A stretch of DNA of 64,000 bases from a virus. Below are positions 5,063-31,637 of this stretch, in pieces. A program made the position numbers and the translations under genes. The notes beneath the pieces are model-generated. The model made no database searches. It was given only the letters and a program-made list of their open reading frames with translations, and was not told where the DNA came from. How positions within the stretch are numbered: the first letter of the stretch is position 1; every line of letters starts with the position of its first letter. The stretch is from the IMG/VR virus record IMGVR_UViG_3300012000_000005, positions 1-64,000 of that record. The stretch is one strand, 5' to 3'.

Positions 5063-5307
5063 TTAACGACCCAGCGCTAGGACGCAATAAAGCTCAGCGT
5101 GCTTTTGGCAATGATATGCCAAATAAAAAAGGTGTAAACACGAAAAAAAAGCCTCCGTTGAAGCAGAAACGCAGTCGCGTCAATGAGTTTCGAAATGACC
5201 GTAATGGTATGTTTTCGGGTCCGCGTCCAACATATGGAAGATACAATGTATCTGAACAAGCGAGTGATGTTTTAAATAACTCATTCAGAAATCGAGGAGA
5301 ACGATAA
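5059..5307 (+). CDS. Basic hypothetical protein
   Basis: ATGA overlap, GGAG SD. Confidence 0.6.
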   Translation: MINDPALGRNKAQRAFGNDMPNKKGVNTKKKPPLKQKRSRVNEFRNDRNGMFSGPRPTYGRYNVSEQASDVLNNSFRNRGER

Positions 5308-5519
5308 TGTTACCAGCAATCGGAGCAGCAGTAGCAAGATTAGCACCAATGGTTGCACGAGTTGGTGGGTCTAGCGTTGGAAAGGCTGCAACACGCGGAG
5401 CAGTAACTGGAGTTGAACGTGGAGTAGCTGGTAGAGTAGCAAACATGGTACAAGGTCAAAAAGACGGAAATAACCAACAACAGCCACCACAGCAACCTTC
5501 ATATCCAAATTTTGTGTAA
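5307..5519 (+). CDS. Hypothetical protein
   Basis: TAATG coupling, AGGAG SD. Confidence 0.65.
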   Translation: MLPAIGAAVARLAPMVARVGGSSVGKAATRGAVTGVERGVAGRVANMVQGQKDGNNQQQPPQQPSYPNFV

Positions 5520-5964: not shown

Positions 5965-6248
5965 TGCCTATCTATCGTAAGGGCGATGACCTATCTGACC
6001 TACACAAGGCTGCTCTAGCACAGCAGATTGGTGAGGCTACTAAGCGTCGCAACATGACTGGTGCAGAGCTTACTGAATATGAATACAACACTGGTCGTAC
6101 TGGAGCTGAGCGCGTTCTAACAGCTGGTCCATCAACTGACCCACGCAGAGACATTATTGGTCCTGTAAGTGGCGACCATATGAAGCGTTTTGGTGCTCAA
6201 ATGCGTAATGCTAAAGCAACCAAAGAAAGAGAAATGAAGAGACGATAA
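5964..6248 (+). CDS. Hypothetical protein
   Basis: TAATG coupling. Confidence 0.65.
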   Translation: MPIYRKGDDLSDLHKAALAQQIGEATKRRNMTGAELTEYEYNTGRTGAERVLTAGPSTDPRRDIIGPVSGDHMKRFGAQMRNAKATKEREMKRR

Positions 6249-6604
6249 TGGATAAGCGTTCAGAGTCTCAATTTAAAGCTGTTGGCACACATGTTATTGC
6301 CCCAGCTAAAACTGGTGCAGGCGGCACTTGGGTAGAAAAATCTGGTAGCTCTAGAGTAGATGCTGGTACCCCACAAGATGTTATGAAGAACGTCGCTGCA
6401 ACTGGTCGTATGTTCCAAAAGCATAATGAAGCCCCAACAATGCGCGACCCAGAGATTCCTCGTTGGAGGGTTGAAGCTGGTGTTAGTGGAGATATCTCTC
6501 GCTCTGGGGTAGATGTAGCTACCAAAGAAGGTCGCCGTCAAGTAGCTTCTAAACTAGGTTTACCAAACAAGAAAGAATTTAGAGCAAAAAAGAAGAAAGG
6601 TTAA
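6248..6604 (+). CDS. Hypothetical basic protein
   Basis: TAATG coupling. Confidence 0.65.
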   Translation: MDKRSESQFKAVGTHVIAPAKTGAGGTWVEKSGSSRVDAGTPQDVMKNVAATGRMFQKHNEAPTMRDPEIPRWRVEAGVSGDISRSGVDVATKEGRRQVASKLGLPNKKEFRAKKKKG

Positions 6605-6845: not shown

Positions 6846-9521
6846 ATTATATTTCTGCGATTTTTCGCAGCACTATTCCTAGCAACATTTCTATTTTTAC
6901 TTGGTCAATCAACTGCGCATGCTGATGAACCTGCTACTGACCAGCAGGTCGTTTCCCCTGCCCCAAGCCCAGCTCCTGTAGATGGCGCTACCGTAACTAC
7001 TTCTTCTGGAGCCTTTCCACAACCAACGTCAACTCCTCAATCAACTGGTGAGAGTTCTTCAAGCTCTTCTTCAACTGGTTCAACTCCACAATCGTCTTCA
7101 ACTTCAGATACCTCATCGCCATCGCCCAGCCAATCGCCCATGCAATCGGCAGAGCCAGTATCCACGCCAACAAATAATCCTGAAACAATTACAGTTACCT
7201 CCGTACAGAATAAGATTGACACTGCAACTGCTACAGTCTCATCAACAAATATACCAACAACAGTCGCCTCTGACACTGCTGTTGTAACCGCTGTGGCACA
7301 AGCTACAGCGGCAATTCAAGATGCACAGACTTCTCTAAGTAACGCAACTCCTTTAGTGCAAGCAGCCGAAAGTGCTACAGCACTTATAGCACCTGCTGCA
7401 GCGGCTGTGGAAACCGCTACCACCACAGCTGCTGCCGCAGCTAATACTGTTACAACTCAAACTGCAGTTGTACAAGCTGCAACTGAAACTGTTGCTGCTA
7501 GACAAGAAGATGTAAATGTTGCAACTTCTGCAGTTACTACACAACAAGCAGTAGTAACGGAGGCCGTTATTACTAAGGCTGCGGCTGATGCTACTGTTGC
7601 TGCTAATACTCAACCAGGTCTTGATGTAAAAGTTACTCAGAACATTGGTTATAACAATGCTCCACCTGTAGAGGTAGGAACTACTACCTACACTGGAACT
7701 GCTGCTCAGATTAACTACAATTATGGTTTGGGTGGTCCCCCAAATACGTACCCAGAAGACTTTCAAATTAAATTCTCAGGACAGATTACGTCTAATACAA
7801 CTGGCAATATCCAGTTCTATGCTCCTGCAGATGACGGCGTAAAACTTTATCTAGATAATCAACTAGTTATTAATGACTGGTATGACAAAGGTGGCGGTGG
7901 TTCTATATCTGCTCCAGTAGCTTTTACAGCTAATACCCCTAAAGCTATTGTTCTTCATTTTTATGAGAACGGCGGAGGAGCAAACGTATCTTTGCGCTGG
8001 AATAGAGGTGCTGGTTGGGAAGTGGTTCCAGCTACAGCCTTGAGTCGTAGCAGCGCAACCCCTGAACAGCTAGCTGCAGCTCAAGCGGCTGCTACCGCAT
8101 TAAATACAGCTAATATAAATTTAAATAGTGCTACAGCAGCACAGTCAGTAGCAGAGACAGCACTTGCAGCAGCTCAGACCACACTAACAACAGAGACTCA
8201 AACATTGTCTAACCTCCAGGCTGAGAAAACTACTGCTGATGCTGCTGTTGTGTCAACTACTGCTGTTCTTACGCAGGTTACAAATGATGCGGCAACCGCT
8301 ACTTCCGCAGCTAATGCGGCTTTAAATACTGCTAATACTCTTGCTGATATTGCTGTTAATAAAGCAAACGCTATCGCTGTTCAGGTGTCCAGTACGAGCT
8401 CTCGTATTGAAGCGGAGGCTCAGGCTGCTGCGGCTGCTCAGGCTGCTGCGGCTGCTGCTGCGCAAGCTGCTGCTCAACAAGATGCTTCTTCTTCAACGCC
8501 AACTGTGCAACCAAATCCAAGTACTCCAACGTCTCCTTCTGACGGTGGGCCAACCACTCCTCCTCAGACAAATCCTCAAAACCCATCTACTGACCCTCTT
8601 CCTCCAACTGATACTGAACCTCAGCCCGATTCTCCATCTCAACCTGAAGGTCAGGAACAATCTCAAGAGCCTTCCGAAGATGGGGCTCAAAACCAAGAAT
8701 CCAATCAGGAATCTGACCAGAATCCTGAATCTCCTGACGAGCCAGAATCAACTGATGATACGCCTGAACAAGATGAGAATAACACATCTGATGATGGTAC
8801 TGATAGTTCCCAAGACTCATCTGAAGAACCTACAGACTCAGAAGAAGAACAGCAAACCACAGACCCAGAGTCACCAGAAACAGACCCCGAACAAAGCGGC
8901 GAAACTGACGAGTCTCAGAGCGAGAGTAATACTGAAGAATCAGAACAGCCACAGTCAGAAGAACAAGAGCAAGATAATCCGTTGGAAGAAACATCTTCTG
9001 ATAATACACCAGAAGAGGTAATAAGTGAAGCACTGGCTGATGGCAAACTTACTGAAGAGGAAAAAGCTGCCGTAGTAGAGGCTTTAGTTTCTAATTTAGA
9101 ACCTGGGGAAGCTGTTAGCGCTGAGGCTCTGAAGGAAGCTGGATTAACCTATGAGGACCTACCTCCTCAAACTCCAGTCAACGTTCGTACTGATGAGAAC
9201 GGTAATCCCGTTATAATTGAAGCAGAGGTTGCTGCGGCGCTAGTCTTATTAGAGAACCCCGCAGAACTTTTAGGCGCAATATTCGATGACCCAGGTCAGG
9301 TCCTTTTAGCACTCGGTTCTATCGGTGCTGATATGTCTCCAGAAGAACGAGAAGAAGCAACCAAAATGGTGGTTGCAACTGTCGTAGCAGCTGGAGCGGC
9401 TCTTAACGCAATCGGTGCAGCAGCTGGTGGCTCATCCGCACCAAGTGGTGGTGGAAGCAGTAACTCTGGAGGGGGAGGCCCTTCTGGAGAGAGTAAGGCC
9501 GTTAGGAGACGTAAGCCATGA
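6846..9521 (+). CDS. Secreted or membrane-anchored PA14-domain protein (about 891 aa, probable ATT start)
   Basis: Frame stays open upstream of the 7140 ATG to TAA at 6843 and encodes signal peptide IIFLRFFAALFLATFLFLLGQSTAHA/DE; PA14 motifs (FSGQI, ADDGVKLYLDNQLVINDW, FYENGGGA); acidic linker; C-terminal hydrophobic helix. Confidence 0.75.
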   Translation: MIFLRFFAALFLATFLFLLGQSTAHADEPATDQQVVSPAPSPAPVDGATVTTSSGAFPQPTSTPQSTGESSSSSSSTGSTPQSSSTSDTSSPSPSQSPMQSAEPVSTPTNNPETITVTSVQNKIDTATATVSSTNIPTTVASDTAVVTAVAQATAAIQDAQTSLSNATPLVQAAESATALIAPAAAAVETATTTAAAAANTVTTQTAVVQAATETVAARQEDVNVATSAVTTQQAVVTEAVITKAAADATVAANTQPGLDVKVTQNIGYNNAPPVEVGTTTYTGTAAQINYNYGLGGPPNTYPEDFQIKFSGQITSNTTGNIQFYAPADDGVKLYLDNQLVINDWYDKGGGGSISAPVAFTANTPKAIVLHFYENGGGANVSLRWNRGAGWEVVPATALSRSSATPEQLAAAQAAATALNTANINLNSATAAQSVAETALAAAQTTLTTETQTLSNLQAEKTTADAAVVSTTAVLTQVTNDAATATSAANAALNTANTLADIAVNKANAIAVQVSSTSSRIEAEAQAAAAAQAAAAAAAQAAAQQDASSSTPTVQPNPSTPTSPSDGGPTTPPQTNPQNPSTDPLPPTDTEPQPDSPSQPEGQEQSQEPSEDGAQNQESNQESDQNPESPDEPESTDDTPEQDENNTSDDGTDSSQDSSEEPTDSEEEQQTTDPESPETDPEQSGETDESQSESNTEESEQPQSEEQEQDNPLEETSSDNTPEEVISEALADGKLTEEEKAAVVEALVSNLEPGEAVSAEALKEAGLTYEDLPPQTPVNVRTDENGNPVIIEAEVAAALVLLENPAELLGAIFDDPGQVLLALGSIGADMSPEEREEATKMVVATVVAAGAALNAIGAAAGGSSAPSGGGSSNSGGGGPSGESKAVRRRKP

Positions 9522-9700
9522 ACCTAATTAAAAAGTTAGCAAAAGACTTTATTGAACAAACCTGGACACTTCTTGGAATGTTCATTGCATGGGTCGTCTT
9601 AGACGGTAGCGCTAAGACAGTAGTTGGGTATGCAATTTTGTTCAGCCTTGGTGCTTGGGCAATTACTTACCCTATTCGTAACCCAAAGGAAGAAGATTAA
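9518..9700 (+). CDS. Small 2-TM membrane protein
   Basis: Two hydrophobic segments; ATGA overlap with PA14 gene. Confidence 0.7.
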   Translation: MNLIKKLAKDFIEQTWTLLGMFIAWVVLDGSAKTVVGYAILFSLGAWAITYPIRNPKEED

Positions 9701-10110
9701 TGAAATCAATAGGTAATATTTTACTAAGAATTGTCGCTACTTTTGCGGCTAGCGGCCTTTCAGTTATTGGTGCTGGAGCAATTGCAGGCGTAGACACTTT
9801 AACAGCTGTTGCTGTTGCTGGTCTTACCGCTGTTGCCGCAGTCGTAGAGAAGCTAGCACGTGGCTTTATGAATGATGGCAAGCTTGACCTAGATGAGATT
9901 AACGCGGCATTTGCTGCAGTTGATACAAAGGCTAAGAGCGCGGCTGACCTTCAGGTAGAAGCTAAGCAAAACGGACACAACATCACAATTGCTGCTGGAA
10001 CAGGTGCAGTTAGTTATGCAGCCGCAGAAGCGGTATCCGCTGCCCCAGCTAAGGTTGGAAATCATCAACCAGACGCACATGACCCAGACGACGAGTGGGA
10101 TAAGGACTAG
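9700..10110 (+). CDS. Membrane protein (2 TM plus soluble tail)
   Basis: Hydrophobic N-terminal half; TAATG coupling. Confidence 0.7.
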   Translation: MKSIGNILLRIVATFAASGLSVIGAGAIAGVDTLTAVAVAGLTAVAAVVEKLARGFMNDGKLDLDEINAAFAAVDTKAKSAADLQVEAKQNGHNITIAAGTGAVSYAAAEAVSAAPAKVGNHQPDAHDPDDEWDKD

Positions 10111-10125
10111 TTCCTTAAAAACTAA

Positions 10126-10164
10126 GCCGCATAAGGCACCCTAACGGGTGCTTTATGCGGTTTT
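10126..10164 (+). terminator. Rho-independent terminator
   Basis: GCCGCATAAGGCACC-CTAAC-GGGTGCTTTATGCGGT followed by TTT. Confidence 0.7.
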
Positions 10165-10198
10165 ACTATTAGAAAGCACCTACAATCGGAGTATGACA

Positions 10199-10558
10199 AT
10201 GCTGAGTAAGGGATATAAGCGCTCTGGTGGGCAAGGTGGCGGCAGCAAAGGCGTAGCCGCAAGCGGAATTGAGGCTCTTAGCTCTAGAGCTAGCACTGGT
10301 TCTCGCAAGTCTATGCCAAAAATGGCATCAACCCAATCAGCAACTAAAGCAATTTACAAAAATAGAGCTAAAGAACAACAAAAAGCTAATAAATATGTAA
10401 AACCTAAGCCTGCTCCAGCTAAAAAAGCTCCTACAAAAAAGGCTACAAAGCCAAAAACAGAAAAACAGCTGTCTTCAGAGTACAAAAATGTAGGTTCCGA
10501 TACGTCAAACCTTCCACCAGTCGATTTAACAGGTAGACAGTTCAATGGCAAAGCGTAA
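10199..10558 (+). CDS. Lys-rich basic protein
   Basis: ATG 7 nt after GGAG; PAKKAPTKK repeats. Confidence 0.6.
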   Translation: MLSKGYKRSGGQGGGSKGVAASGIEALSSRASTGSRKSMPKMASTQSATKAIYKNRAKEQQKANKYVKPKPAPAKKAPTKKATKPKTEKQLSSEYKNVGSDTSNLPPVDLTGRQFNGKA

Positions 10559-10721
10559 AAGAAGCAAGGCTTCTATAAAATCAGAAATTACCGCCTCAAC
10601 TACCTCTCCAGTTAAGGCAGATAAGGCATCTCGCCAGTTTAGGGACCGTAAAACCTTTGTTATGTCACCTATTAAGCCTAAAGACACTCATGCGCTACAA
10701 TGGAGCCGTTGGTCTCCATGA
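10545..10721 (+). CDS. 58-aa basic hypothetical protein
   Basis: Manual translation MAKRKRSKAS...WSRWSP. Confidence 0.55.
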   Translation: MAKRKRSKASIKSEITASTTSPVKADKASRQFRDRKTFVMSPIKPKDTHALQWSRWSP

Positions 10722-10876
10722 GATATAAGGAGTTTTTACAAGCAGAGCCTAAACCAATACAGGTTCAAGACTCTAGATTTGGTTTACGTAAGTTCTTTAC
10801 AACAGATAAAGAAAAACCTAGTATTGTCGTCTGGAACCAGCCAGGCAAAGGACCAAATGGCGAAAGCCAGAATTAG
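10718..10876 (+). CDS. 52-aa hypothetical protein
   Basis: Manual translation MRYKEFLQAEP...; ATGA overlap. Confidence 0.55.
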   Translation: MRYKEFLQAEPKPIQVQDSRFGLRKFFTTDKEKPSIVVWNQPGKGPNGESQN

Positions 10877-10893
10877 TATTTGAAAGGACTACA

Positions 10894-11682
10894 ATGGCAG
10901 CATCATATCCAGGTTCGGTACGAGTATTTGATACAAAGTTTAATATCACCGACACTGTAGACGCTTCGCACCCTAACTCTTTACAAGAAGAAGTAGTTGC
11001 TATGCAGTCTATTATTGGTACAAACCCTCATGTTTCTACTGCTGCTAACCCTACAACCGCTTTTGTCGCTAGTTCCTTTACATACGGAAGCCTTTCTGCA
11101 CGTATTGCTAACATTGAAAACGGTGTTGTAGCCGATTCACACACTCAATATCTACGTAAAACTGCAGATGGTTTTACTAGTAATAGAGTTGACACTGGCA
11201 ACCAATCAAATGTTGGAGTTGTTGTACGAGGAACTCTAAATCAGTCTGCAAACCTCCAAGAATGGCAAAATAACATTGGAGTTGTTCAAGCAGCCGTTAC
11301 TCCAACTGGTTTATTTACTGGAACGGTAAATGCAGCCAATATTGTTGGTAGCGTAACCGCAATTCCTCAAGATGCAACAATTGAACAAAAATCTTCTAAT
11401 TTTTCATTAGTATTATCTGACAAAAACAAAGTATTTTGGTGTGTTAACACTGGAGCAACTTTAACTGTAACTATTCCCCTAAATGCTAGCCAAGCTTTTC
11501 CAACTGGCTCTCAAATGACGTTTATTCGTGGACAAAACCAAAATGTAACGTTTGTTGGAGAATCTGGCACGGTTGTATTAGGTGCAACTCCTGGTCCAAA
11601 CCTAAGAACGCAGTGGTCAGCAGCCACTCTTCTAAAGCTTGCTGAGAATACCTGGACTCTACTTGGCGATTTGAGCGCCTAA
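10894..11682 (+). CDS. Virion fibre adaptor or minor structural protein
   Basis: N-term ASYP...HPNSLQEEVVAMQ anchor and C-term LRTQWSAATLLK...WTLLGDL domain typical of phage fibre proteins. Confidence 0.65.
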   Translation: MAASYPGSVRVFDTKFNITDTVDASHPNSLQEEVVAMQSIIGTNPHVSTAANPTTAFVASSFTYGSLSARIANIENGVVADSHTQYLRKTADGFTSNRVDTGNQSNVGVVVRGTLNQSANLQEWQNNIGVVQAAVTPTGLFTGTVNAANIVGSVTAIPQDATIEQKSSNFSLVLSDKNKVFWCVNTGATLTVTIPLNASQAFPTGSQMTFIRGQNQNVTFVGESGTVVLGATPGPNLRTQWSAATLLKLAENTWTLLGDLSA

Positions 11683-13481
11683 TGTTAGTTAGAGTCGGTC
11701 CAGTTGACTCCCAGAAAAAGGTACCGCCTGGTTTAGCAACGCTAACCTCAGCAACTGATACTGGGTCTAATAGAAACTTTGATGATGGTTCATGTAACTT
11801 AACATGGACTGCGCCTACATTTGACGGAAAAACACCGCTTGTAGGCTATGACATTGTTGCTACTCCAGCTGACGGCGGCGCAGATGTTGTTACACAGGTT
11901 GGGCTAACAACAACTGGAAATATTACTGGTCTTCGTTCTGGTATTGAATATACTTACAAAGTTAGGGCTAGAAACCAAAGCAGTACTGGTTCTAACTCTT
12001 CTGGCAGAGGACCAATTAGAGCTACTACAAAGCCTAATATTCCTACAAACGTTTCAGCTGCTAATTTAAATACTGGAAGCACCGCATCAGTTTCATGGTC
12101 CGCCCCAGCTAACGGCGGTTCAACAATTACTCAATATACTGTAAAGATTGTTGGAACTAATACAACCCTAACAACTTCTAGCACTTCTCTTACTTTTACT
12201 GGATTAACTAACGGCAATAGTTATAGCTTTGTTGTTACTGCTACAAACGCAAACGGAACTAGTGCTGAATCAAACCCATCTGGTGTTATTGGTATCACTC
12301 AACCTGCTCCAGCACCAGCACCAGCTCCACCTTCTGGTGGTGGTGGGTGCACAAGTTGTCCACAAGACAGCGGAACTAGCTATTGTTCTGGAGCAAATTT
12401 AGTAATTAACCGAATAGACCCTTGTTGTGGAACAACACTATCGCCAAGAGTTGTTACAGTTAACGGCTGCGCTGCTCCAACTCCAACTGCTCCACCAGTA
12501 ACATGTTGCCAAGATGACGACGCAGGATTTTGCAGTGGCGGTACTTGGTTTCAAAATAGATTTGACCCTTGTGGTGGAGCTTATTGTGCCCCAAGAAATA
12601 CTGGAAGTCCTTGCGTCTCAACTGGGCCATCTGACGCAAACACTACTTATTGTGCATCAACTGCTTCGTTTGTTCCAACTTCGGGATATCCTGGAAACTG
12701 CCCAGGAGCTAGTACAGTAGTCGTAACACCAACTGCTCCTCCAGTAGTCATAACACCAACTGCTGCTCCAGTAACGCCAACTGCTGCTCCTGGACCTGAT
12801 GCTTTTGGTTGCCCACCTGGCACTGGTTTTGCTGGCGTTGGTCGAGGATGTATCCCTACTGGTCCTGTGACAGTAACACCAACTGCTGCTCCAGTAGTTG
12901 TAACCCCAACTCCACCATCTCAACCATTTGCACCTTGGCCAGAGTATTTCTACACGGGCGTTGGCGGTCCACCAGCAGCACCAGTACCAAGATACCCCTA
13001 CTACTGCTTATCTATTGACAGCATGATTCCTACTCCAAATGGAGATAAGAGATTAGCTGACTTAGTAATTGGTGACCAGATTATTTCTGCACGTTTTGAG
13101 GAAATTGACCCAGATGACCCAAATGCAGACTTAATTGTGGATACTTGGTCCTCAGACAGCTTTACCTATCGTGAGCTAGATATAACAACAATTGTTAATA
13201 TCAGAGAGTGGGAAGAGACTGGTCGTTATACTATTAACAATAGAATCCACGTAACAGGCACTCACCCATTTATTGCAAAAGAAGCCGCGGATGGGCGCTA
13301 TTACTATACTAGAGCTGCTCAGCTTGTAGAGGGTGATTTTTTATTTGATGGGGATTTAGAGACTTGGGTTCCCGTTACAAGTATTTCATATGCTCCAAAC
13401 ATTAGATTTAAAGTTCGTACTCTTAGCACTGAGCCCTATGATATGTTCTTCGCAGAGGGTATACTAGTTCACAACAAGTAA
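11682..13481 (+). CDS. FN3 x2 + Cys-rich and Pro-Thr-rich protein with C-terminal Hint domain
   Basis: FN3 signatures (WTAP...Y.YKVRARN; WSAP...YSFVVTATN); PTAAP repeats; Hint from C at 13005 (CLSIDSMI.TPNG, TGTHPF, VHNK-stop). Confidence 0.85.
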   Translation: MLVRVGPVDSQKKVPPGLATLTSATDTGSNRNFDDGSCNLTWTAPTFDGKTPLVGYDIVATPADGGADVVTQVGLTTTGNITGLRSGIEYTYKVRARNQSSTGSNSSGRGPIRATTKPNIPTNVSAANLNTGSTASVSWSAPANGGSTITQYTVKIVGTNTTLTTSSTSLTFTGLTNGNSYSFVVTATNANGTSAESNPSGVIGITQPAPAPAPAPPSGGGGCTSCPQDSGTSYCSGANLVINRIDPCCGTTLSPRVVTVNGCAAPTPTAPPVTCCQDDDAGFCSGGTWFQNRFDPCGGAYCAPRNTGSPCVSTGPSDANTTYCASTASFVPTSGYPGNCPGASTVVVTPTAPPVVITPTAAPVTPTAAPGPDAFGCPPGTGFAGVGRGCIPTGPVTVTPTAAPVVVTPTPPSQPFAPWPEYFYTGVGGPPAAPVPRYPYYCLSIDSMIPTPNGDKRLADLVIGDQIISARFEEIDPDDPNADLIVDTWSSDSFTYRELDITTIVNIREWEETGRYTINNRIHVTGTHPFIAKEAADGRYYYTRAAQLVEGDFLFDGDLETWVPVTSISYAPNIRFKVRTLSTEPYDMFFAEGILVHNK

Positions 13482-13491
13482 AGGACCTAAT

Positions 13492-14109
13492 ATGGAATCA
13501 AAAATCGTTGCACCAGGGATAGTCTTATTTGAGAACATAGTCCCTGACTATAAAGAGCTAGTACAGGAAATAGAAAAAGTAGGAAATTCACCATCTAAAG
13601 TAATTAGGTGGAAACGAGCTACTGTGGGTTCTCCTACCGCTGGAACTCAAATACACGAGGCTAGAACCAACTCCTCTATTCATCTTCAAGCTGAGTGGGC
13701 TACGGTTGAAAACCCAGATTTAAATGCTGGAGGACAGCTAGCGGTAAAGTTAATTAATAACATTCAAGATGCCTACAACAAATATAAAGAATATTATCCA
13801 TCAGTAAACTCTGGAGACCTTCCAGTAAGCCCTATTATTTTAAGGTATCAAACTGGTCAAAAATACGATATGCATGCAGATGCTGGCGGAGGAAATAACC
13901 GAGTATTATCTTTAGTTTGGTATGTAAATAACGAGTATGAAGGTGGAGAAATTGACTTCCCATACTTTGGATATAAGTTAAAGCCACCAGCTAATTCTAT
14001 GATTTTCTTTCCTTCTAACTACATTTATGCGCATATAGCTCACCCAGTAACTGACGGAACAAAGTATGCCGTGGTTATGTGGATATTGGAAGACACAACT
14101 CATTTATGA
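13492..14109 (+). CDS. 2OG-Fe(II) dioxygenase, prolyl 4-hydroxylase-like
   Basis: HAD...YEGGE.DF...FPS...H...PVTDGTKY: HxD...H triad and 2OG-binding Lys. Confidence 0.85.
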   Translation: MESKIVAPGIVLFENIVPDYKELVQEIEKVGNSPSKVIRWKRATVGSPTAGTQIHEARTNSSIHLQAEWATVENPDLNAGGQLAVKLINNIQDAYNKYKEYYPSVNSGDLPVSPIILRYQTGQKYDMHADAGGGNNRVLSLVWYVNNEYEGGEIDFPYFGYKLKPPANSMIFFPSNYIYAHIAHPVTDGTKYAVVMWILEDTTHL

Positions 14110-14699
14110 AATATTTTTCTGATGACGCAGATATGGGTACCCGCCCAATTGTAAAAGACCCAATTATAGTAAGTGACGTTCTAGAGCCAACTAGATTTGC
14201 AGAGGTTGTAGAAACGGTTACTAATTACCCATTGGATGAGCTTACTTACGATAGAAGTTTTGGCCGTTTTATGTTAAAGCCTGGGTCAAGCACCTTGCCA
14301 GACGACCTATTAAAGGAATGTCAGCAAAAAGCAAGAGATATATTTGACAGCCAAACTCTTCTACCTACATATGCCTGCTACGTAAAATACAAGGGTGCTA
14401 GAGCTAACTTATTGCGCCACAAAGACAGCAATGCTTGCACATATACAATTGACCTTTGTTTAACACAGATGGTTGAGTGGCCGCTATACGTTGAGGATAA
14501 AGAGTACATATTGCAGCCAAATCAAGCTCTATGTTTTTATGGAGAGGACCAAACTCATTGGCGCGGCCCATATCCAGAAAAAGACACAAATATAATAGAC
14601 ATGATATTTCTACATTATGCGGAGCCAGACCACTGGTATCACACCAAAGGAGCGGAGTACTACAAAACAATCATGGCTAGACAAAACGCTGTGATGTAA
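14106..14699 (+). CDS. 2OG-Fe(II) dioxygenase (phage type)
   Basis: HKD...C..T..L...WP...HWR...FLHY motif; ATGA overlap at 14106. Confidence 0.8.
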   Translation: MKYFSDDADMGTRPIVKDPIIVSDVLEPTRFAEVVETVTNYPLDELTYDRSFGRFMLKPGSSTLPDDLLKECQQKARDIFDSQTLLPTYACYVKYKGARANLLRHKDSNACTYTIDLCLTQMVEWPLYVEDKEYILQPNQALCFYGEDQTHWRGPYPEKDTNIIDMIFLHYAEPDHWYHTKGAEYYKTIMARQNAVM

Positions 14700-15427
14700 T
14701 GCCAGTAATTAAGTTCTATCCTACTGACGAGGAAGTAGGGGGTTTTGCCCCTCCACCAGTCCCCGTTCGCACAATGATGCCAGAATGGTTTAGAAAGCTT
14801 CCGCCTTACCTAACTCAAAAGCCAGAAGTTGTAAAGGCAATTGATGATTCCCCAAACGGTGGTCATTTTCTAAATGTAACTGGTAAAAAGTGCATGTCTA
14901 TGATTGATACGTTTACCACTGGGTATTACTTCTTATGTCCCGTAGATATATTTATAGACACGACAAATCCGAAAGACATTCAATTAAAATGGAGAAATCC
15001 TCGTTACGAGTTTATATTAACTCACAACCCAGAGCAGGTTGGAGATTACCCTGTAGATGATACCCTTTGTGAAGATATCTTAAGGTGGGTTCCATTTTGG
15101 TGTGCGGTAACTCCAGAAGGTTACAGTACGCTTATTATTACGCCCGCACATAGACCAGACCTGCCTTTTATAACAATGACTGGAATTATAGACACAGATA
15201 GCATGCCTTCTGCTGGCGCTTTACCTTTTCACATAAAGAAAAACTATAAAGGAATTATTAAGCGAGGAACCCCTATTGCTCAGGCTATACCCTTTAAAAG
15301 AGAAGAGTGGAGCTCTGAAATCATAGAGGAAAGAAGTCAAGAAGTTCGTGATAGGCTAAATCTGATAAATTCCTCCTTTTCAGGGATGTATCAAGAAAAT
15401 ATGTGGGAGAAGAAGACATTTAAATGA
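14699..15427 (+). CDS. Conserved phage protein (DUF6065-like), frequent neighbour of 2OG oxygenases
   Basis: PEWFRK...KKC...TPEGYS.L...PF....GIIDTD...IKRGTPIAQAIPFKRE. Confidence 0.6.
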   Translation: MPVIKFYPTDEEVGGFAPPPVPVRTMMPEWFRKLPPYLTQKPEVVKAIDDSPNGGHFLNVTGKKCMSMIDTFTTGYYFLCPVDIFIDTTNPKDIQLKWRNPRYEFILTHNPEQVGDYPVDDTLCEDILRWVPFWCAVTPEGYSTLIITPAHRPDLPFITMTGIIDTDSMPSAGALPFHIKKNYKGIIKRGTPIAQAIPFKREEWSSEIIEERSQEVRDRLNLINSSFSGMYQENMWEKKTFK

Positions 15428-15693
15428 GCAAAATTTCAGATAGATTTAGAAACAGTGATAAGGGTAAAAACCTTCCCAAACCAGTTAGGCCGTGGGATTT
15501 ACTAAAAACCTCTGAGCCTAGAGCAACTGATGACGTTGCTTCAGACAGGTTGTCTATCTGCAGGGCTTGTCCAGAGTTAATACCCCTTACTGGTCAATGT
15601 AAAAAATGTGGCTGCGTTATGCATTTAAAAGTAAAACTAGCAAAAGCCTACTGTCCACTTCATAAATGGGCCCCAACCCACGATACGGAATAA
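15424..15693 (+). CDS. Small Cys-rich metal-binding protein (DUF6171-like)
   Basis: R..IC..CP......QCKKCGC.M..K......CP..KW. Confidence 0.7.
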   Translation: MSKISDRFRNSDKGKNLPKPVRPWDLLKTSEPRATDDVASDRLSICRACPELIPLTGQCKKCGCVMHLKVKLAKAYCPLHKWAPTHDTE

Positions 15694-15695
15694 AA

Positions 15696-16718
15696 ATGAC
15701 CCCAAAACTGCTGGTAAGCATCGTAAACTACAAAGACCCAGAGTTTTTTGAAACTGTGAGGAGTCTTTGGGACACGTGCGACTTTAAAGACTCTATTGTG
15801 TTTTCTTTGGTAGATGAAGACGAGGCGCCTAAGGATTTTTCCTTTATTCCAGAAAAAAATTTAATTTACAGATATTTTCCTTCTGATAAGTACTACGGCG
15901 GCCTGTGCTGGGCAAGGAACTTAGCTACGCAAGTAGATTTTGATTACGAATACTTTGTTCAGTTTGACTCCCACAGTAGGGCTCGTAATGGGTGGGATAG
16001 AAAAGGGTACGAAAACTATAAATATATAGAAGCGGCATTTCCAGAAGAAAAAGTATTAATTTGCTATGCCCCTCCTTCCTATTTTATAGATAAAGAGGGG
16101 AACGTAAATTTAGAATTAGAAACCAACAAGTTTGGACAAAGAGCTACTTGGTATAAAGACTTAGTTCCAGGATATGAATTTCCTGGGTATAGAGAATTAA
16201 CTGGAACAGAGGTTGCGAAAACATATTGGACCACTTGTATGTACATATTTGCTCCATATGCGTGGATAGATGAAGTTGGAGTAGATGGGGTTGGAGCTTT
16301 TAGTACTGAAGAGTTCAATCAATCTATAAGAACATTTTCAAAAGGTTGGTCCATATATGCAATTGGGGCCAGAGACGTTTTTCATCAACACCACGACTCT
16401 TGGGGACGAAACTATACAAAGGCAGCTTTACGGCCTTGGGGTGATGAAAGAGAAAACGCTTATTGGGACCATGTACTAAGTGCTACTAACCACCTTGGCA
16501 GACTTCTAGCTGGGTTAGAAGACGTGCCCATAGAAAAAGTAAAAGAGTTTTTTAAAGTGACTGAAATAGATGAGCGTTTCTTAGGTATGTCAGATGCTTA
16601 CTACGACATGGTTAATGCACGAGGTAAGGCTCTGGGAATGCCACCAAGACCAAACAGAAACGGTATGCCCCCTCTACCCTCTCCAGACGCACCAGTATTT
16701 AAGCCTGACAGACCGTAA
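15696..16718 (+). CDS. GlcNAc transferase, Gnt1/GT60-like (Skp1-hydroxyproline GlcNAc-transferase family)
   Basis: VSIVNYKDPE...T..SL, G.CWARN, FVQFDSHSR...WD, EE....IR.FS.GW.IY match the GT60 pattern. Confidence 0.7.
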   Translation: MTPKLLVSIVNYKDPEFFETVRSLWDTCDFKDSIVFSLVDEDEAPKDFSFIPEKNLIYRYFPSDKYYGGLCWARNLATQVDFDYEYFVQFDSHSRARNGWDRKGYENYKYIEAAFPEEKVLICYAPPSYFIDKEGNVNLELETNKFGQRATWYKDLVPGYEFPGYRELTGTEVAKTYWTTCMYIFAPYAWIDEVGVDGVGAFSTEEFNQSIRTFSKGWSIYAIGARDVFHQHHDSWGRNYTKAALRPWGDERENAYWDHVLSATNHLGRLLAGLEDVPIEKVKEFFKVTEIDERFLGMSDAYYDMVNARGKALGMPPRPNRNGMPPLPSPDAPVFKPDRP

Positions 16719-16733
16719 ATACTCTTAGACAAT
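16698..16733 (+). promoter_or_regulatory. Putative late promoter motif
   Basis: GCCTGAC-N18-GACAAT; same spacing at four other sites. Confidence 0.55.
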
Positions 16734-16789
16734 AGGTAAGGCGCCCCCGATATCAGGCGTTCACTACCACTCTAGAGAATAGGTACAAA

Positions 16790-17761
16790 ATGGCAACAGA
16801 TTCTTCAGGTCAGCAGGCCGTTGATTTTGTATGGGGTAACTTCCCTATGCAACCCAACGATGACCGTGCAGCGACCGTAACTAACACAGGTGGGTCTACT
16901 GGCGACTATGGCTGGGCACAGACCACTTTGGTTGCAAGTGCTCGCCTTGATGCAGCATTAGACAACCACGCAAATGCAGAAGCGGGTTGGTCAGGTTATC
17001 CAACATTTATCGCAGGAGCAGGTAACTATATGGTTACTGAAGCTTCAGGTAACGGAACAACCGTAACCTACAAGTCCCAAAACAATCTTGCTGCAGGAGA
17101 TACAGTAAACATTACTGGTCTTACAGCATCTGGTTACAACCTTTCAAACGCAACTGTAGCTAGCGCAAACGCTCTTCAGTTCACAGTAACAAACGCAGCA
17201 AACGGTGGCCTTATTACAGGTCAGCGCGGTAAGGTTGAGTCAACAACTGCTCTAACAGCAGCTGATGGCGTAGGTCTTGGAAACATTATCGTTCCAAATG
17301 TTCTTGGTACAACCACAGCATTTGCTGTTGATGCTCTTCGTGATGCAGGCTACGAATTGGCTAATATCACCACAGCATCGGCTGCTGCTAACGCACGCAC
17401 CAACATCACTCGCTTCAATGCCACAAGCGCTACAGTTGCAGTTATTTACGCTACAAGCGCAAACACCAACTACCCAACAGGCACCAAGGTCACACTTGTT
17501 GCAGGAACTCCAGCTGGCGTAAGCCCAGTCAACCTTCCAGCATACGCACTTGGTACTTGGACAGTTACAGGTTCTGCAGGCGCAGGTCAGATTACTGTTT
17601 CAGGTTCTGGCTTTACAGTTGCAGACACAACTGGCATCAATGCAACTGGAACACTCGGCGGAGCAAATGGCACCATCAGAACCCAGAGCACTGCAGCAAA
17701 CGCAGCAGGCATTGCTACAACCGCAACAATTACCATCACCCCTTGGGCAAACGCTTCTTAA
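16790..17761 (+). CDS. PASTA-like domain virion protein
   Basis: VDFVWGNFPMQPNDDR N-terminus; VPNVLG.T...A..AL..AG and GTIRTQS halves of a PASTA-like repeat. Confidence 0.6.
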   Translation: MATDSSGQQAVDFVWGNFPMQPNDDRAATVTNTGGSTGDYGWAQTTLVASARLDAALDNHANAEAGWSGYPTFIAGAGNYMVTEASGNGTTVTYKSQNNLAAGDTVNITGLTASGYNLSNATVASANALQFTVTNAANGGLITGQRGKVESTTALTAADGVGLGNIIVPNVLGTTTAFAVDALRDAGYELANITTASAAANARTNITRFNATSATVAVIYATSANTNYPTGTKVTLVAGTPAGVSPVNLPAYALGTWTVTGSAGAGQITVSGSGFTVADTTGINATGTLGGANGTIRTQSTAANAAGIATTATITITPWANAS

Positions 17762-29159: not shown

Positions 29160-31637
29160 GTGGCTCCAGAAGAACTTTATGTAGTAGGTCCAGATAACAG
29201 CGCTTGGTACCCAACCGCTACTGGTCCGACTTCTCCTGCTCCTACAGGCGGTACTGGTCCTACTGGACCAACTGGCCCTACTGGTAGAACAGGTGCAACA
29301 GGACCAGCAGGTGCAACGGGTGCTGCTGGCGTTTCTGTAACAGGTCCTCAAGGTCCAACTGGCGCGCCAGGACCAACTGGTCCACAAGGTATCCAAGGTA
29401 ACGCTGGTCCAACTGGTGCAACTGGTCCTTCTGGTATTTCTGGTCTTCAAGGACCTACTGGTCCCACTGGACCATCTGGACAAGTAATCACTATTCGTGG
29501 TGAGTACCCAACACTTAATGATTTACAAACAGCACATCCAACTGGTAATCCAGGCGATGCTTATCTTCTTGCTAATGGCAATTTAATTATTTGGAACCCT
29601 ACGTTAAACGGGCCATCCACTGGTGGTTGGCAAAACGTAGGTAATCTAGAAGGACCAACTGGTCCTGCTGGAGTAACAGGTCCTACTGGTCCACGCGGAC
29701 AGCAAGGTGTACAAGGTCCTGTTGGTAATACTGGTACAACAGGTGATACTGGTCCTACTGGTCCGCAAGGCCCAACAGGTCCACAAGGTGCACGTGGTGA
29801 GACTGGTCCTATCGGTCCTACTGGTGTTGCTGGTCTTGTTGGACCAACAGGTGCTACTGGTGCACAAGGTCTTTCTATTACTGGCCCTACTGGTCCTCAA
29901 GGTAAGTCATTAACACTTCTCGGAAGTTTTGCTGATTTACAAGCACTAAACCTTGCGTATCCTCCAATAACACTTAAAGCTGGCGACACAGCTTTTATTG
30001 GAACTACATTCTATTACTGGAATCCATCCCCTGGTATTTGGGTTGCTACTTCCAATTTGATTGGACCTACAGGTCCTACAGGTGCCGTCGGTCCTACAGG
30101 TGCCGCATCAAACGTAACTGGTCCTACTGGTTTAACTGGAGCTACTGGTGCACAGGGTCCTATTGGTCCAACAGGTCCTCAAGGAAATATTGGTGCCACT
30201 GGTCCAACTGGAGCAGCATCAACGGTTCCTGGTCCTACTGGTCCTACTGGAACTACGCGCCCAGTAACAAGCGTTACATTTACAAGTCGAGGTGTTTGGA
30301 GTTCCTTAGGAACTTACGTATTAAATGATGGAGTTACTTACAACTCTGAAACATGGGTATTAACAAACGTTTCACAATTTACTGTTGGTACCGCACCTAA
30401 CGCTGATGGAAGCGGATGGGCACTTTATGTAAAAGGTGCTACAGGTGCTACGGGTCCTCAAGGTTCTGCTGGTCTTCCAGGTGCAATTGGTCCTACAGGT
30501 GCTCAAGGTCCACAAGGTATTCAAGGCCCTACTGGTCCACAGGGTACAGCAGGTACTCCAGGTTCTGTTGGTACCGCGGGTGCTACAGGTCCTACTGGTC
30601 CTCAAGGTGCTGGAATCTTTATTCTTGGTTCCTACAACTCATTAAGCGATTTACAAACAGCGCATCCAATTGGTGCAACTGGCGACGGTTATCTTGTTAA
30701 CGGTGTTCTATTTGTATGGGCTGGTTCTAACTGGGCAAGTGCTGGTGCAATTCAAGGACCAACAGGTGCTCAAGGTATTCAAGGTATCCAAGGTGCAACT
30801 GGTCCTAAAGGAGATACTGGTCCACAAGGACCTCAAGGTATTCAAGGAATTCAAGGACCAGTTGGTCCTACTGGCTTAACTGGTGCGACTGGTGCGCAAG
30901 GAACTCAAGGTCTTCAAGGTCTTCAAGGTGTAACAGGTCCTACAGGTCCGCAAGGTCCTCAAGGTGTTACTGGTCCAACAGGTATTCAGGGACGCGGTCT
31001 TGCAATTCTTGGTTCGTTTGATACGTTCCAACAATTAACTGCAACCATAACCAATCCTGCAACTGGTGACGGTTATTTAATTCAAGGTCAGTTATATATT
31101 TGGCAAGGTACTGCGTGGATTAACGCAGGCTTTGTTCAAGGCCCAACAGGTCCTACTGGACAAACAGGTATTCAAGGTCCTACAGGTGCAACTGGTGCGG
31201 CTTCAACTGTTCCAGGTCCTACTGGTGCTACAGGCCCAACTCCATTTACCGTTATTGGTACTTGGCAAAGTGGAATTTCATATCAACCTGGTCAAGCCGT
31301 TTTCTATGACACCCCAACATTAAAAGGAACGTACCTACGCAGAAACAACAATTCTACTGCTGGCATTACTCCTTTAGAAGACCCAGCTGGTTGGCAAGTA
31401 ATTGTTGCTGCAACTATTGGACCAACTGGAGCTACAGGTCCACAAGGTTTAACTGGTCTACAAGGTCCAACTGGTTCTCAAGGTATTCAGGGTGTAACAG
31501 GACCAACAGGAAGTCAGGGTTTACTAGGTCCAACAGGCCCTACAGGCACTACACTACTTAATGTAGATGGTGGCGGCCCTGCAACAAATTATGGCGGAGT
31601 TATAACCATCAACGGAGGAGACGTGAGCGGTAACTAA
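29160..31637 (+). CDS. Collagen-like fibre protein
   Basis: Extensive Gly-X-Y (GPT/GAT/GPQ) runs interrupted by repeated globular modules. Confidence 0.9.

Follow-up and report, generated by a model that had tools for sequence, protein, structure and literature searches.

A block of seven genes in an uncultured lake phage was analysed as a candidate system by which a phage would modify its own fibre protein. The source is IMG/VR virus record IMGVR_UViG_3300012000_000005 (95,461 bp, ~99% complete), and the window, meaning the whole stretch of DNA that was analysed, is its first 64 kb (64,000 nt). Since the window encodes a terminase, portal, major capsid protein, tail sheath, tape measure and baseplate, the virus is a contractile-tailed phage. 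Its major capsid protein is 70% identical to those of Streptomyces phages, e.g. BRock, and this likeness makes an actinobacterial host plausible. The seven genes, named g1 to g7, occupy positions 10894-16718 of the + strand, and all seven open reading frames (ORFs) were verified. The features considered are as follows.

10894..11682, + strand: g1, 262 aa, tail-fibre-type domain ('adaptor')
11682..13481, + strand: g2, 599 aa, candidate substrate with FN3 domains, Pro-rich linkers, Cys-rich modules and a Hint domain
13005..13481, + strand: putative Hint/BIL-type autoprocessing domain of g2, from motif alignment and weak profile matches
13492..14109, + strand: g3, 205 aa, prolyl-4-hydroxylase-family 2-oxoglutarate (2OG)/Fe(II) oxygenase
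14106..14699, + strand: g4, 197 aa, second 2OG/Fe(II) oxygenase
14699..15427, + strand: g5, 242 aa, phrog_7084 (unknown function), weakly DUF6065-like
15424..15693, + strand: g6, 89 aa, DUF6171, six invariant Cys
15696..16718, + strand: g7, 340 aa (350 from ATG 15666), similar to GT-A polypeptide N-acetylhexosamine (HexNAc) transferases, PF11397 'GlcNAc'
29160..31637, + strand: collagen-like tail fibre with GPT/GPQ triplets, matching collagen-like PHROG families; outside the cassette and a possible second substrate

The original prediction for this DNA had described seven genes with overlaps or gaps of at most 10 nt, and this description was borne out: all are on the same strand, with junctions between -4 and +10 nt. 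Using the most plausible starts, the successive junctions from g1 to g7 are -1, +10, -4, -1, -4 and +2 nt, and a further gene, g8, begins 71 nt after g7. The start of g4 is probably ATG 14106, which produces an ATGA overlap, rather than GTG 14079, and that of g7 is probably ATG 15696, in agreement with its homologues, rather than 15666. No terminator-like sites were found on the + strand between 10400 and 18000. Judged from this layout, translation of g3-g7 is coupled to that of the fibre genes, and all of them belong to one late-type block on the same strand.

In order to follow the block through other phages, 67 IMG/VR loci with g7 relatives (cited below by L numbers) were searched with all window proteins; the neighbourhood evidence comes from IMG/VR loci only. 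Grouping at 85% transferase identity gave 18 lineages (43-99% identity). Next to the transferase, g6 was found in 16 of the 18 lineages, g4 in 15, g3 in 10 and g5 in five, including L029/L030, where the order is transferase-g5-g3. The oxygenase most faithfully linked to the transferase is therefore g4, not g3, the prolyl 4-hydroxylase (P4H) that Pfam recognises. An ORF was counted as Pro-rich if Pro made up at least 30% of some 60-residue window. Of the 16 lineages with enough upstream sequence, 13 have such an ORF one or two genes upstream of the cassette. Together with the counts for g6 and g4, this result answers in the affirmative the gene-neighbourhood check that had been proposed with the original prediction.

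The upstream Pro-rich ORFs reach up to 87% Pro+Thr and contain 12-40 Cys, with small globular modules, often Cys-rich, placed between repeats such as PTPTAP, PTPTAPAP, PTPVAP, APVAP, PTPPSP and (TP)n. It is the composition of their linkers that is conserved, not the sequence. Among the 661 ORFs of 150 aa or more in all frames of these loci, no more than 43 reach the Pro criterion, and most of the 43 are the ORFs at the upstream position. Other window genes, namely those for a PA14-domain protein, two 136-aa ORFs and g8, are shared only within a close clade, so that the module is conserved while its surroundings are not. Lineages with and without g3 did not differ visibly in the repeats (PTPVA, PTPP or TP) that the neighbouring protein carries. 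The DNA of the block had no match among cultured phages, and tblastn of g7 and g2 against 50,697 INPHARED phage records gave no match; the transferase subfamily is thus absent from the cultured phages of INPHARED. Nor did the g7 alignment find a relative when run against 185,579 species genomes, so that no species-representative bacterial genome has the subfamily either.

The transferase g7 matches PF11397 'GlcNAc' with an expectation value (E) of 9e-15 and 55.4 bits against a cut-off of 21 (53.9 bits in a genome-wide search), and 43 of 43 g7 homologues (43-98% identity) have a precomputed PF11397 match. Residues D101-S102-H103, which form a DxH motif, are invariant in 19 sequences. The structure model of g7 has a predicted local distance difference test score (pLDDT) of 86, and its best PDB matches are all polypeptide N-acetylgalactosamine (GalNAc) transferases of glycosyltransferase family GT27 (E 4e-11, template modelling score about 0.48 by query length), with GalNAc-T1, T2, T3, T4, T7, T10 and T12 at the top. 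Neither the single sequence nor a profile of g7 matched PDB sequences, and the GT27 link comes from the fold search only. The protein ends right after the catalytic domain and has no ricin-type lectin domain. GT27 and GT60 are sister families with DxH instead of DxD, GT60 being found only in prokaryotes and protists (PMC7185993). Members of GT60 are polypeptide alpha-N-acetylglucosamine (GlcNAc) transferases without a lectin domain, and their acceptors are Ser/Thr of mucin-like repeats or, in the case of Gnt1, the hydroxyproline of Skp1 (PMC8724618). In light of this literature, the DxH motif common to both families and the missing lectin domain support g7 as a GT60-type enzyme. The C-terminus of every transferase homologue is a conserved GMPPR motif, present twice in the window copy (GMPPRPNRNGMPPLP, 16630-16718); it could serve the hydroxylases as a docking site or as a pseudo-substrate.

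The small protein g6 reaches 28.4 bits with DUF6171 (PF19668; cut-off 27) and matches phrog_13558 at 1.4e-16. Its Cys46, 49, 59, 62, 64 and 77 are invariant and form the pattern CxxC...CxxCxC...C, and g6 is probably a zinc-binding subunit of the transferase. In two loci DUF6171 is fused to the transferase N-terminus as a 402-aa ORF (L062, 7746-8954; L060, 96-1304). Prediction of a g6-g7 complex gave a score of 0.83, compared with 0.00 for the best of three controls; among solved complexes 58 of 80 attain a score of 0.83, among mismatched pairs 2 of 110, a calibration that is only rough since custom alignments were used. The prediction runs agree in at least 78% of contacts, with a partner pLDDT of at least 80, and the model supports binding of g6 to g7. 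Domains of the transferase and oxygenase families were also found fused. Among 2241 relatives of g7 obtained by a profile search of 1.84 billion representatives are giant metagenomic proteins in which several PF11397 domains share one chain with oxygenase domains (PF13640/PF13661): P0050 (2461 aa, with an additional AhpC/TSA peroxiredoxin domain), P0052 (1641 aa) and P0069 (935 aa). GT60-type and P4H-type domains thus occur repeatedly in one polypeptide.

Of the two oxygenases, g3 is recognised directly by PF13640 (1.1e-15, 58.8 bits against a cut-off of 27). Its closest solved relatives are the Bacillus anthracis P4H 3itq (8.7e-7), PiuC and the P4H of chlorella virus PBCV-1, 5c5t. The residues of its HxD...H triad (H128, D130 and H181) are invariant, and K191, or Arg in its place, stands at +10 from the distal His. 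An NCBIfam scan gave sub-threshold PKHD/PiuC-type matches for g3 and, apart from a Hint-type match in g2 described below, no matches for the cassette genes. The second oxygenase, g4, has no Pfam match at E ≤ 0.1, and its AlphaFold model (pLDDT 91.6) is a double-stranded beta-helix (DSBH) in which H105, D107, H151 and R153 are invariant. A Foldseek search returned NMAD-1, PHD2, PhyA (6t8m) and the PBCV-1 hydroxylase vCPH (5c5t) at E about 1e-6, as well as ALKBH6. Its protein language-model neighbours, which serve as a lead only, lie in clusters named P4H-domain proteins or containing PF13640. No similarity was found in a profile-profile comparison of g3 with g4, and the two are consequently not recent duplicates.

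Relatives of g4 with 22-31% identity were found in 63 cultured cyanophage and pelagiphage records, where they are annotated as 'ferrochelatase'. This label looks like a legacy misannotation, because the g4 model is that of a DSBH oxygenase. The cultured relatives belong to arrays of 2OG-Fe(II) oxygenase genes that follow directly on tail-fibre genes, for example in L070 (Pelagibacter phage Mosig, 3931-7786) and L071 (Synechococcus phage S-T4, 4170-6811). Synechococcus phages S-PM2 and Syn30 have g4-like genes in such arrays as well. The product of g5 matches phrog_7084, a family of unknown function, at 1.8e-40. DUF6065, the family to which it had been likened before, stays below its cut-off (E 0.041, 13.8 versus 26.6 bits), and that call is weak; the language-model neighbours of g5 are viral clusters with DUF6065 on 12-23% of members. 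The His-x-Asp...His triad is absent from g5, and a profile-profile comparison of g5 with g4 found no similarity.

The candidate substrate is g2, which follows the fibre gene g1. The g1 protein matches the minor tail protein family phrog_8780 (2.7e-14, to the C-terminal part of that family). Its tblastn matches sit within the upstream Pro-rich ORFs of L018, L022, L047, L055, L056 and L061, and in several lineages the Pro/Thr/Cys-rich protein itself has the g1 domain as its N-terminus. Because of this N-terminal position in the upstream Pro-rich proteins, g1 plus g2 correspond to a single fibre protein elsewhere. The g2 protein contains two FN3 domains (fn3 at 2.6e-26), at about residues 34-102 and 121-200. 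Beyond them, Pro-rich linkers at residues 207-222 (nt 12300-12347), 263-276, 346-372 (nt 12717-12797) and 394-441 (nt 12861-13004) alternate with small Cys-rich modules; g2 has 18 Cys in all, and 45 Pro within residues 200-445. The linkers read, in order, QPAPAPAPAPP, AAPTPTAPPV, VTPTAPPVVITPTAAPVTPTAAP and VTPTAAPVVVTPTPP..., and their motifs are of the APAPAP, TPTAP and PTAAP types. They are as rich in Thr as in Pro.

The C-terminal domain of g2 starts with Cys442, contains T525-G-T-H528 and H597-N598, and ends with VHN-K-stop. An alignment with g2 showed that the first Cys, [TS]xxH and HN are kept at the C-termini of L014, L032 and L059. Profiles for Hint domains matched g2 weakly (Intein_splicing, E 0.037, 14.3 versus 35.8 bits; TIGR01443, E 0.073, 13.4 versus 15.6 bits), as did the intein chain 6rpp (E 0.014). 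The residue after HN is Lys, followed by the stop, in g2; it is Lys in L032 and Met in L059. Since the +1 nucleophile (Cys, Ser or Thr) is lacking, the domain would be of the autoprocessing type and not a splicing intein. Apart from the window clade, only the L031-L039 group and L059 have this domain. Directly before it, aromatic-Pro repeats are found in three lineages: PFAPWPEYFY in the window (12930-13004), (FFPP)n in L032 (about 6150-6290) and (FSVFSFTP)n in L059 (about 5290-5440).

These results agree with most of the gene assignments made in the original prediction. The phrog_8780 match speaks for the fibre adaptor, PF13640 and the triad with Lys/Arg at +10 for the P4H-like oxygenase, the DSBH model with its invariant HxD...H for a second 2OG oxygenase, DUF6171 and six invariant Cys for the Cys-rich small protein, and PF11397, the DxH motif and a GT27-like fold without lectin domain for the GT60-like transferase. 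For the protein said to combine FN3 domains, Cys-rich modules, PTAAP repeats and a Hint domain, the first three were found as described, while the Hint domain stands on weaker ground, its motifs being kept and its profiles remaining below cut-off.

Since the gene set follows such fibre proteins through distantly related phages, the phage probably hydroxylates and glycosylates its own fibre. We give a somewhat better than even chance to the reading that g3-g7 are a tailoring cassette for the PT/AP linkers of the phage's own fibre protein. No signal peptide or membrane segment was visible by eye in g2-g7, which would place the whole pathway in the host cytoplasm; UDP-GlcNAc, Fe(II) and 2OG would be available there, along with O2 in aerobic hosts. 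The modular fibre g2, probably anchored through g1, would be modified before or during virion assembly. In the proposed sequence of events, g3 and/or g4 would hydroxylate the AP/TP-rich linkers that connect the FN3 and Cys-rich domains, proline being the most probable target. Then g7, as a retaining GT-A enzyme of GT60/GT27 type with g6 as a bound, zinc-ribbon-like subunit, would transfer HexNAc, probably GlcNAc from UDP-GlcNAc, onto the linkers, with the sugar placed either on the new hydroxyproline, as in Skp1, or directly on threonine, as in mucins. The linkers would thereby become glycosylated spacers, stiff and resistant to proteases, in an appendage built like beads on a string. After that, the Hint domain would probably cut itself off or transfer the new C-terminus of the fibre.

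The two acceptors appear about equally likely. Hydroxyproline is favoured by the oxygenase that nearly always stands beside the transferase and by the fusions of oxygenase and transferase domains. Threonine is favoured by the kinship of g7 to mucin-type enzymes and by L062, which lacks an oxygenase and whose neighbour has Thr/Ser runs with little Pro. What the analysis shows directly are the gene order, families, folds, catalytic motifs, conserved adjacency and fusions, together with a predicted g6-g7 complex. We infer the substrate, the modified residues, the sugar and the biological effect, as well as the oxygen dependence and the mucin- or extensin-like stalk; the hydroxyproline-GlcNAc chemistry is plausible. 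A stricter, Skp1-like form of the proposal states that linker proline is hydroxylated by g3/g4 and then receives alpha-GlcNAc from a GT60 enzyme that requires a DUF6171 zinc-ribbon subunit, in an O2-dependent way. This form is tentative and, while possible, we would not expect it to prove right. The original prediction that the enzymes tailor the adjacent Pro/Thr-rich appendage thus gains support from the conserved adjacency, the transferase-oxygenase fusions and the polypeptide-transferase fold with DxH. Its hydroxyproline-GlcNAc chemistry was not established, since GT60 enzymes also use Thr/Ser, the linkers are Thr-rich and L062 has no oxygenase.

Several observations weigh against a tailoring cassette. 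The case is built entirely from comparative genomics and models. Many fibre and surface proteins have PT-rich linkers and fibre-side regions collect accessory genes, so some of the co-location could be non-functional. The PF11397 match of g7 spans only positions 111-273 of the 352 in the profile. In g4, the basic residue R153 is at +2 from the distal His, which is atypical compared with the usual +9/+10. At VIA Z values of 13.5-15, PHD2, TaPHD, PhyA and vCPH are tied with PiuC-like, SnoN, HalB/BesD and AlkB-type proteins, so that, by its fold, g4 is no closer to prolyl hydroxylases than to small-molecule oxygenases and halogenases. The oxygenase arrays of cyanophages (Kyanoviridae) and pelagiphages have no adjoining Pro-rich ORF, and the role of g5 is not explained by the cassette model. 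There are also exceptions among the lineages. L062 has the g6-transferase fusion and no oxygenase, and its upstream 289-aa protein has poly-Thr and Ser/Thr/Gly tracts, a Cys-rich end and little Pro. L059 is without g6, g3 and g4 and is preceded by a less Pro-rich homologue of g2 (5e-31), and L029/L030 have no Pro-rich neighbour.

Three other explanations for the same genes were weighed. The enzymes may be directed at the host or at metabolism, for instance by hydroxylating a host translation factor or glycosylating a host protein, with the fibre-side position being an accessory-gene hot spot. Pseudomonas PPHD hydroxylates EF-Tu, the g4 fold is not substrate-specific and the g4-like genes of cultured Kyanoviridae stand in their arrays without a Pro-rich neighbour. 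A survey of Baltic Sea viruses counted P4H-type genes with the most abundant auxiliary genes of viruses and called their use 'cryptic' (PMC9301287). However, the same enzyme set stands behind Pro/Thr-rich fibre proteins in lineages that have little else in common, the genes are coupled in translation to the fibre genes within a late-type block, and the transferase is similar to enzymes whose targets are extended Pro/Thr-rich peptides. We consider a host-directed role unlikely. Quite unlikely, in our estimate, is that the hydroxylases act on collagen-like fibres to stabilise triple helices, in which case the transferase may glycosylate the Thr of GPT and the PT-rich neighbour would not be the main substrate. 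The closest solved relative of g3 is the collagen-type P4H of B. anthracis, and the GPT repeats of Bacillus BclA are glycosylated. The phage itself encodes the 825-aa collagen-like fibre at 29160-31637, in which long GPT/GPQ/GPS runs are interrupted by globular domains, and four of the five related records that were examined have small collagen-like ORFs at a distance of 2-5 kb upstream of the cassette. Collagen P4Hs, however, hydroxylate the Y position (X-Pro-Gly), while the Pro of the window fibre is almost always in the X position (G-P-T, G-P-Q). In the window, 12.5 kb separate the collagen gene from the cassette, whereas in most lineages the PT-rich gene directly adjoins the cassette, and no collagen match was found in the record of the close relative L009, which is only 66% complete.

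The third explanation is that the targets of the oxygenases and transferase are phage DNA or nucleotides, whose bases would be hydroxylated and then glycosylated as in hypermodification of the TET/JBP type. Phage 2OG oxygenases and glycosyltransferases are known to hypermodify DNA, and the top Foldseek matches of g4 include the AlkB-type NMAD-1 and ALKBH6. The likeness of g4 to AlkB-type enzymes is nevertheless tied with that to many others, g3 matches the P4H family and not TET/JBP or AlkB, the structural neighbours of g7 are all polypeptide transferases, and the cassette lies within the fibre module and not among replication genes. On account of the families involved and the position in the fibre module, DNA modification was set aside as highly improbable.

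Two neighbouring genes were observed beside the block. The PA14-domain protein encoded at 7140-9521 of the window has a Pro/Thr/Ser-rich acidic linker of its own near residue 457, with 35% Pro over 40 residues, and this linker could be a further substrate of the cassette. The 323-aa protein g8 (16790-17761) is rich in Ala, Thr and Gly and belongs to no family. It is 61-73% identical in L005/L006, compared with 95-98% for the neighbouring enzymes, and may be a fast-evolving fibre tip or receptor-binding protein.

Literature searches on a phage P4H and GT60 cassette, phage hydroxyproline, GT60 or Gnt1 in phages, and P4H with tail fibres found no such cassette described. To our knowledge, hydroxylation and sugar-coating of a fibre have not been shown for any bacterial virus. 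The locus offers a concrete set of substrate and enzymes, namely a fibre with defined linker peptides, two oxygenases and a transferase with its small partner, in one 5.8-kb block. If the tailoring-cassette proposal is true, hydroxylation and GT60-type glycosylation would join the short list of phage virion modifications, DUF6171 would gain a function and a gene family widespread in cyanophages and pelagiphages would have its 'ferrochelatase' label corrected. Fibre properties, and perhaps host range or particle stability, would then depend on the O2, iron and 2-oxoglutarate of the infected cell. The stricter Skp1-like form, if true, would bring glycosylation of hydroxyproline to a prokaryotic system for the first time, explain the abundant 'cryptic' P4H genes of aquatic phages and provide a possible prokaryotic-virus source for the protist Skp1 pathway.

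The proposed pathway can be compared with several known systems. In the Skp1 pathway of Dictyostelium and Toxoplasma, the prolyl 4-hydroxylase PhyA acts before Gnt1, a GT60 enzyme. Both systems combine a cytoplasmic P4H-type oxygenase with a PF11397/GT60-type transferase that has DxH and no lectin domain, and both would act, in an O2-dependent way, on a folded or assembling cytoplasmic protein. Skp1 is a eukaryotic protein modified at a single proline, whereas the candidate substrate here is a repetitive virion fibre with dozens of possible sites. In addition, the phage block contains two oxygenases, DUF6171 and a DUF6065-like protein, and has no extending glycosyltransferases of the PgtA/AgtA type; g7 is the only glycosyltransferase among the genes at 7140-17761, and the 95-kb genome has one PF11397 match.

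Mucin-type O-glycosylation, carried out by GT27 and by the GT60 alpha-GlcNAc transferases of Dictyostelium and T. cruzi, provides the best structural matches of g7 (GT27) and the same DxH motif. Its acceptors are Thr/Pro-rich repeats, like the PTPTAP and (TP)n of the fibre linkers. The mucin-type enzymes are Golgi type II membrane proteins, whereas g7 is predicted to be soluble and phage-encoded, is accompanied by a Cys-rich small subunit and nearly always occurs with an oxygenase. Hyp-O-glycosylation in plants and algae, as of extensins and arabinogalactan proteins, differs in using GT31, GT95 and GT96 transferases, arabinose and galactose, and the secretory pathway, but the AP/TP/VP repeats of the phage proteins resemble its glycomodules and there, too, P4H acts before glycosylation.

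Among viruses, PBCV-1 is similar in having a P4H, vCPH (5c5t), whose likely substrates are the virus's own Pro-rich repeat proteins, and both g3 and g4 match 5c5t. According to Eriksson et al. 1999, as cited in PMC9301287 and PMC7019647, this enzyme acts on viral repeats of the (PAPK)n type, and a note cited in PMC7019647 states that no hydroxyproline was detected in PBCV-1 particles. PBCV-1 differs in being a eukaryotic giant virus with no linked GT60, and its P4H gene does not adjoin the substrate gene. In mycobacteriophages, glycosylation of capsid and tail-tube subunits by phage-encoded glycosyltransferases has been shown experimentally and is referred to in PMC11256854 and PMC12582341. 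That system lacks hydroxylases and is directed at the C-termini of capsid and tail-tube proteins, not at fibre linkers, but it resembles the one proposed here in that phages of Actinobacteria use transferases encoded near the structural genes to decorate their own virion proteins.

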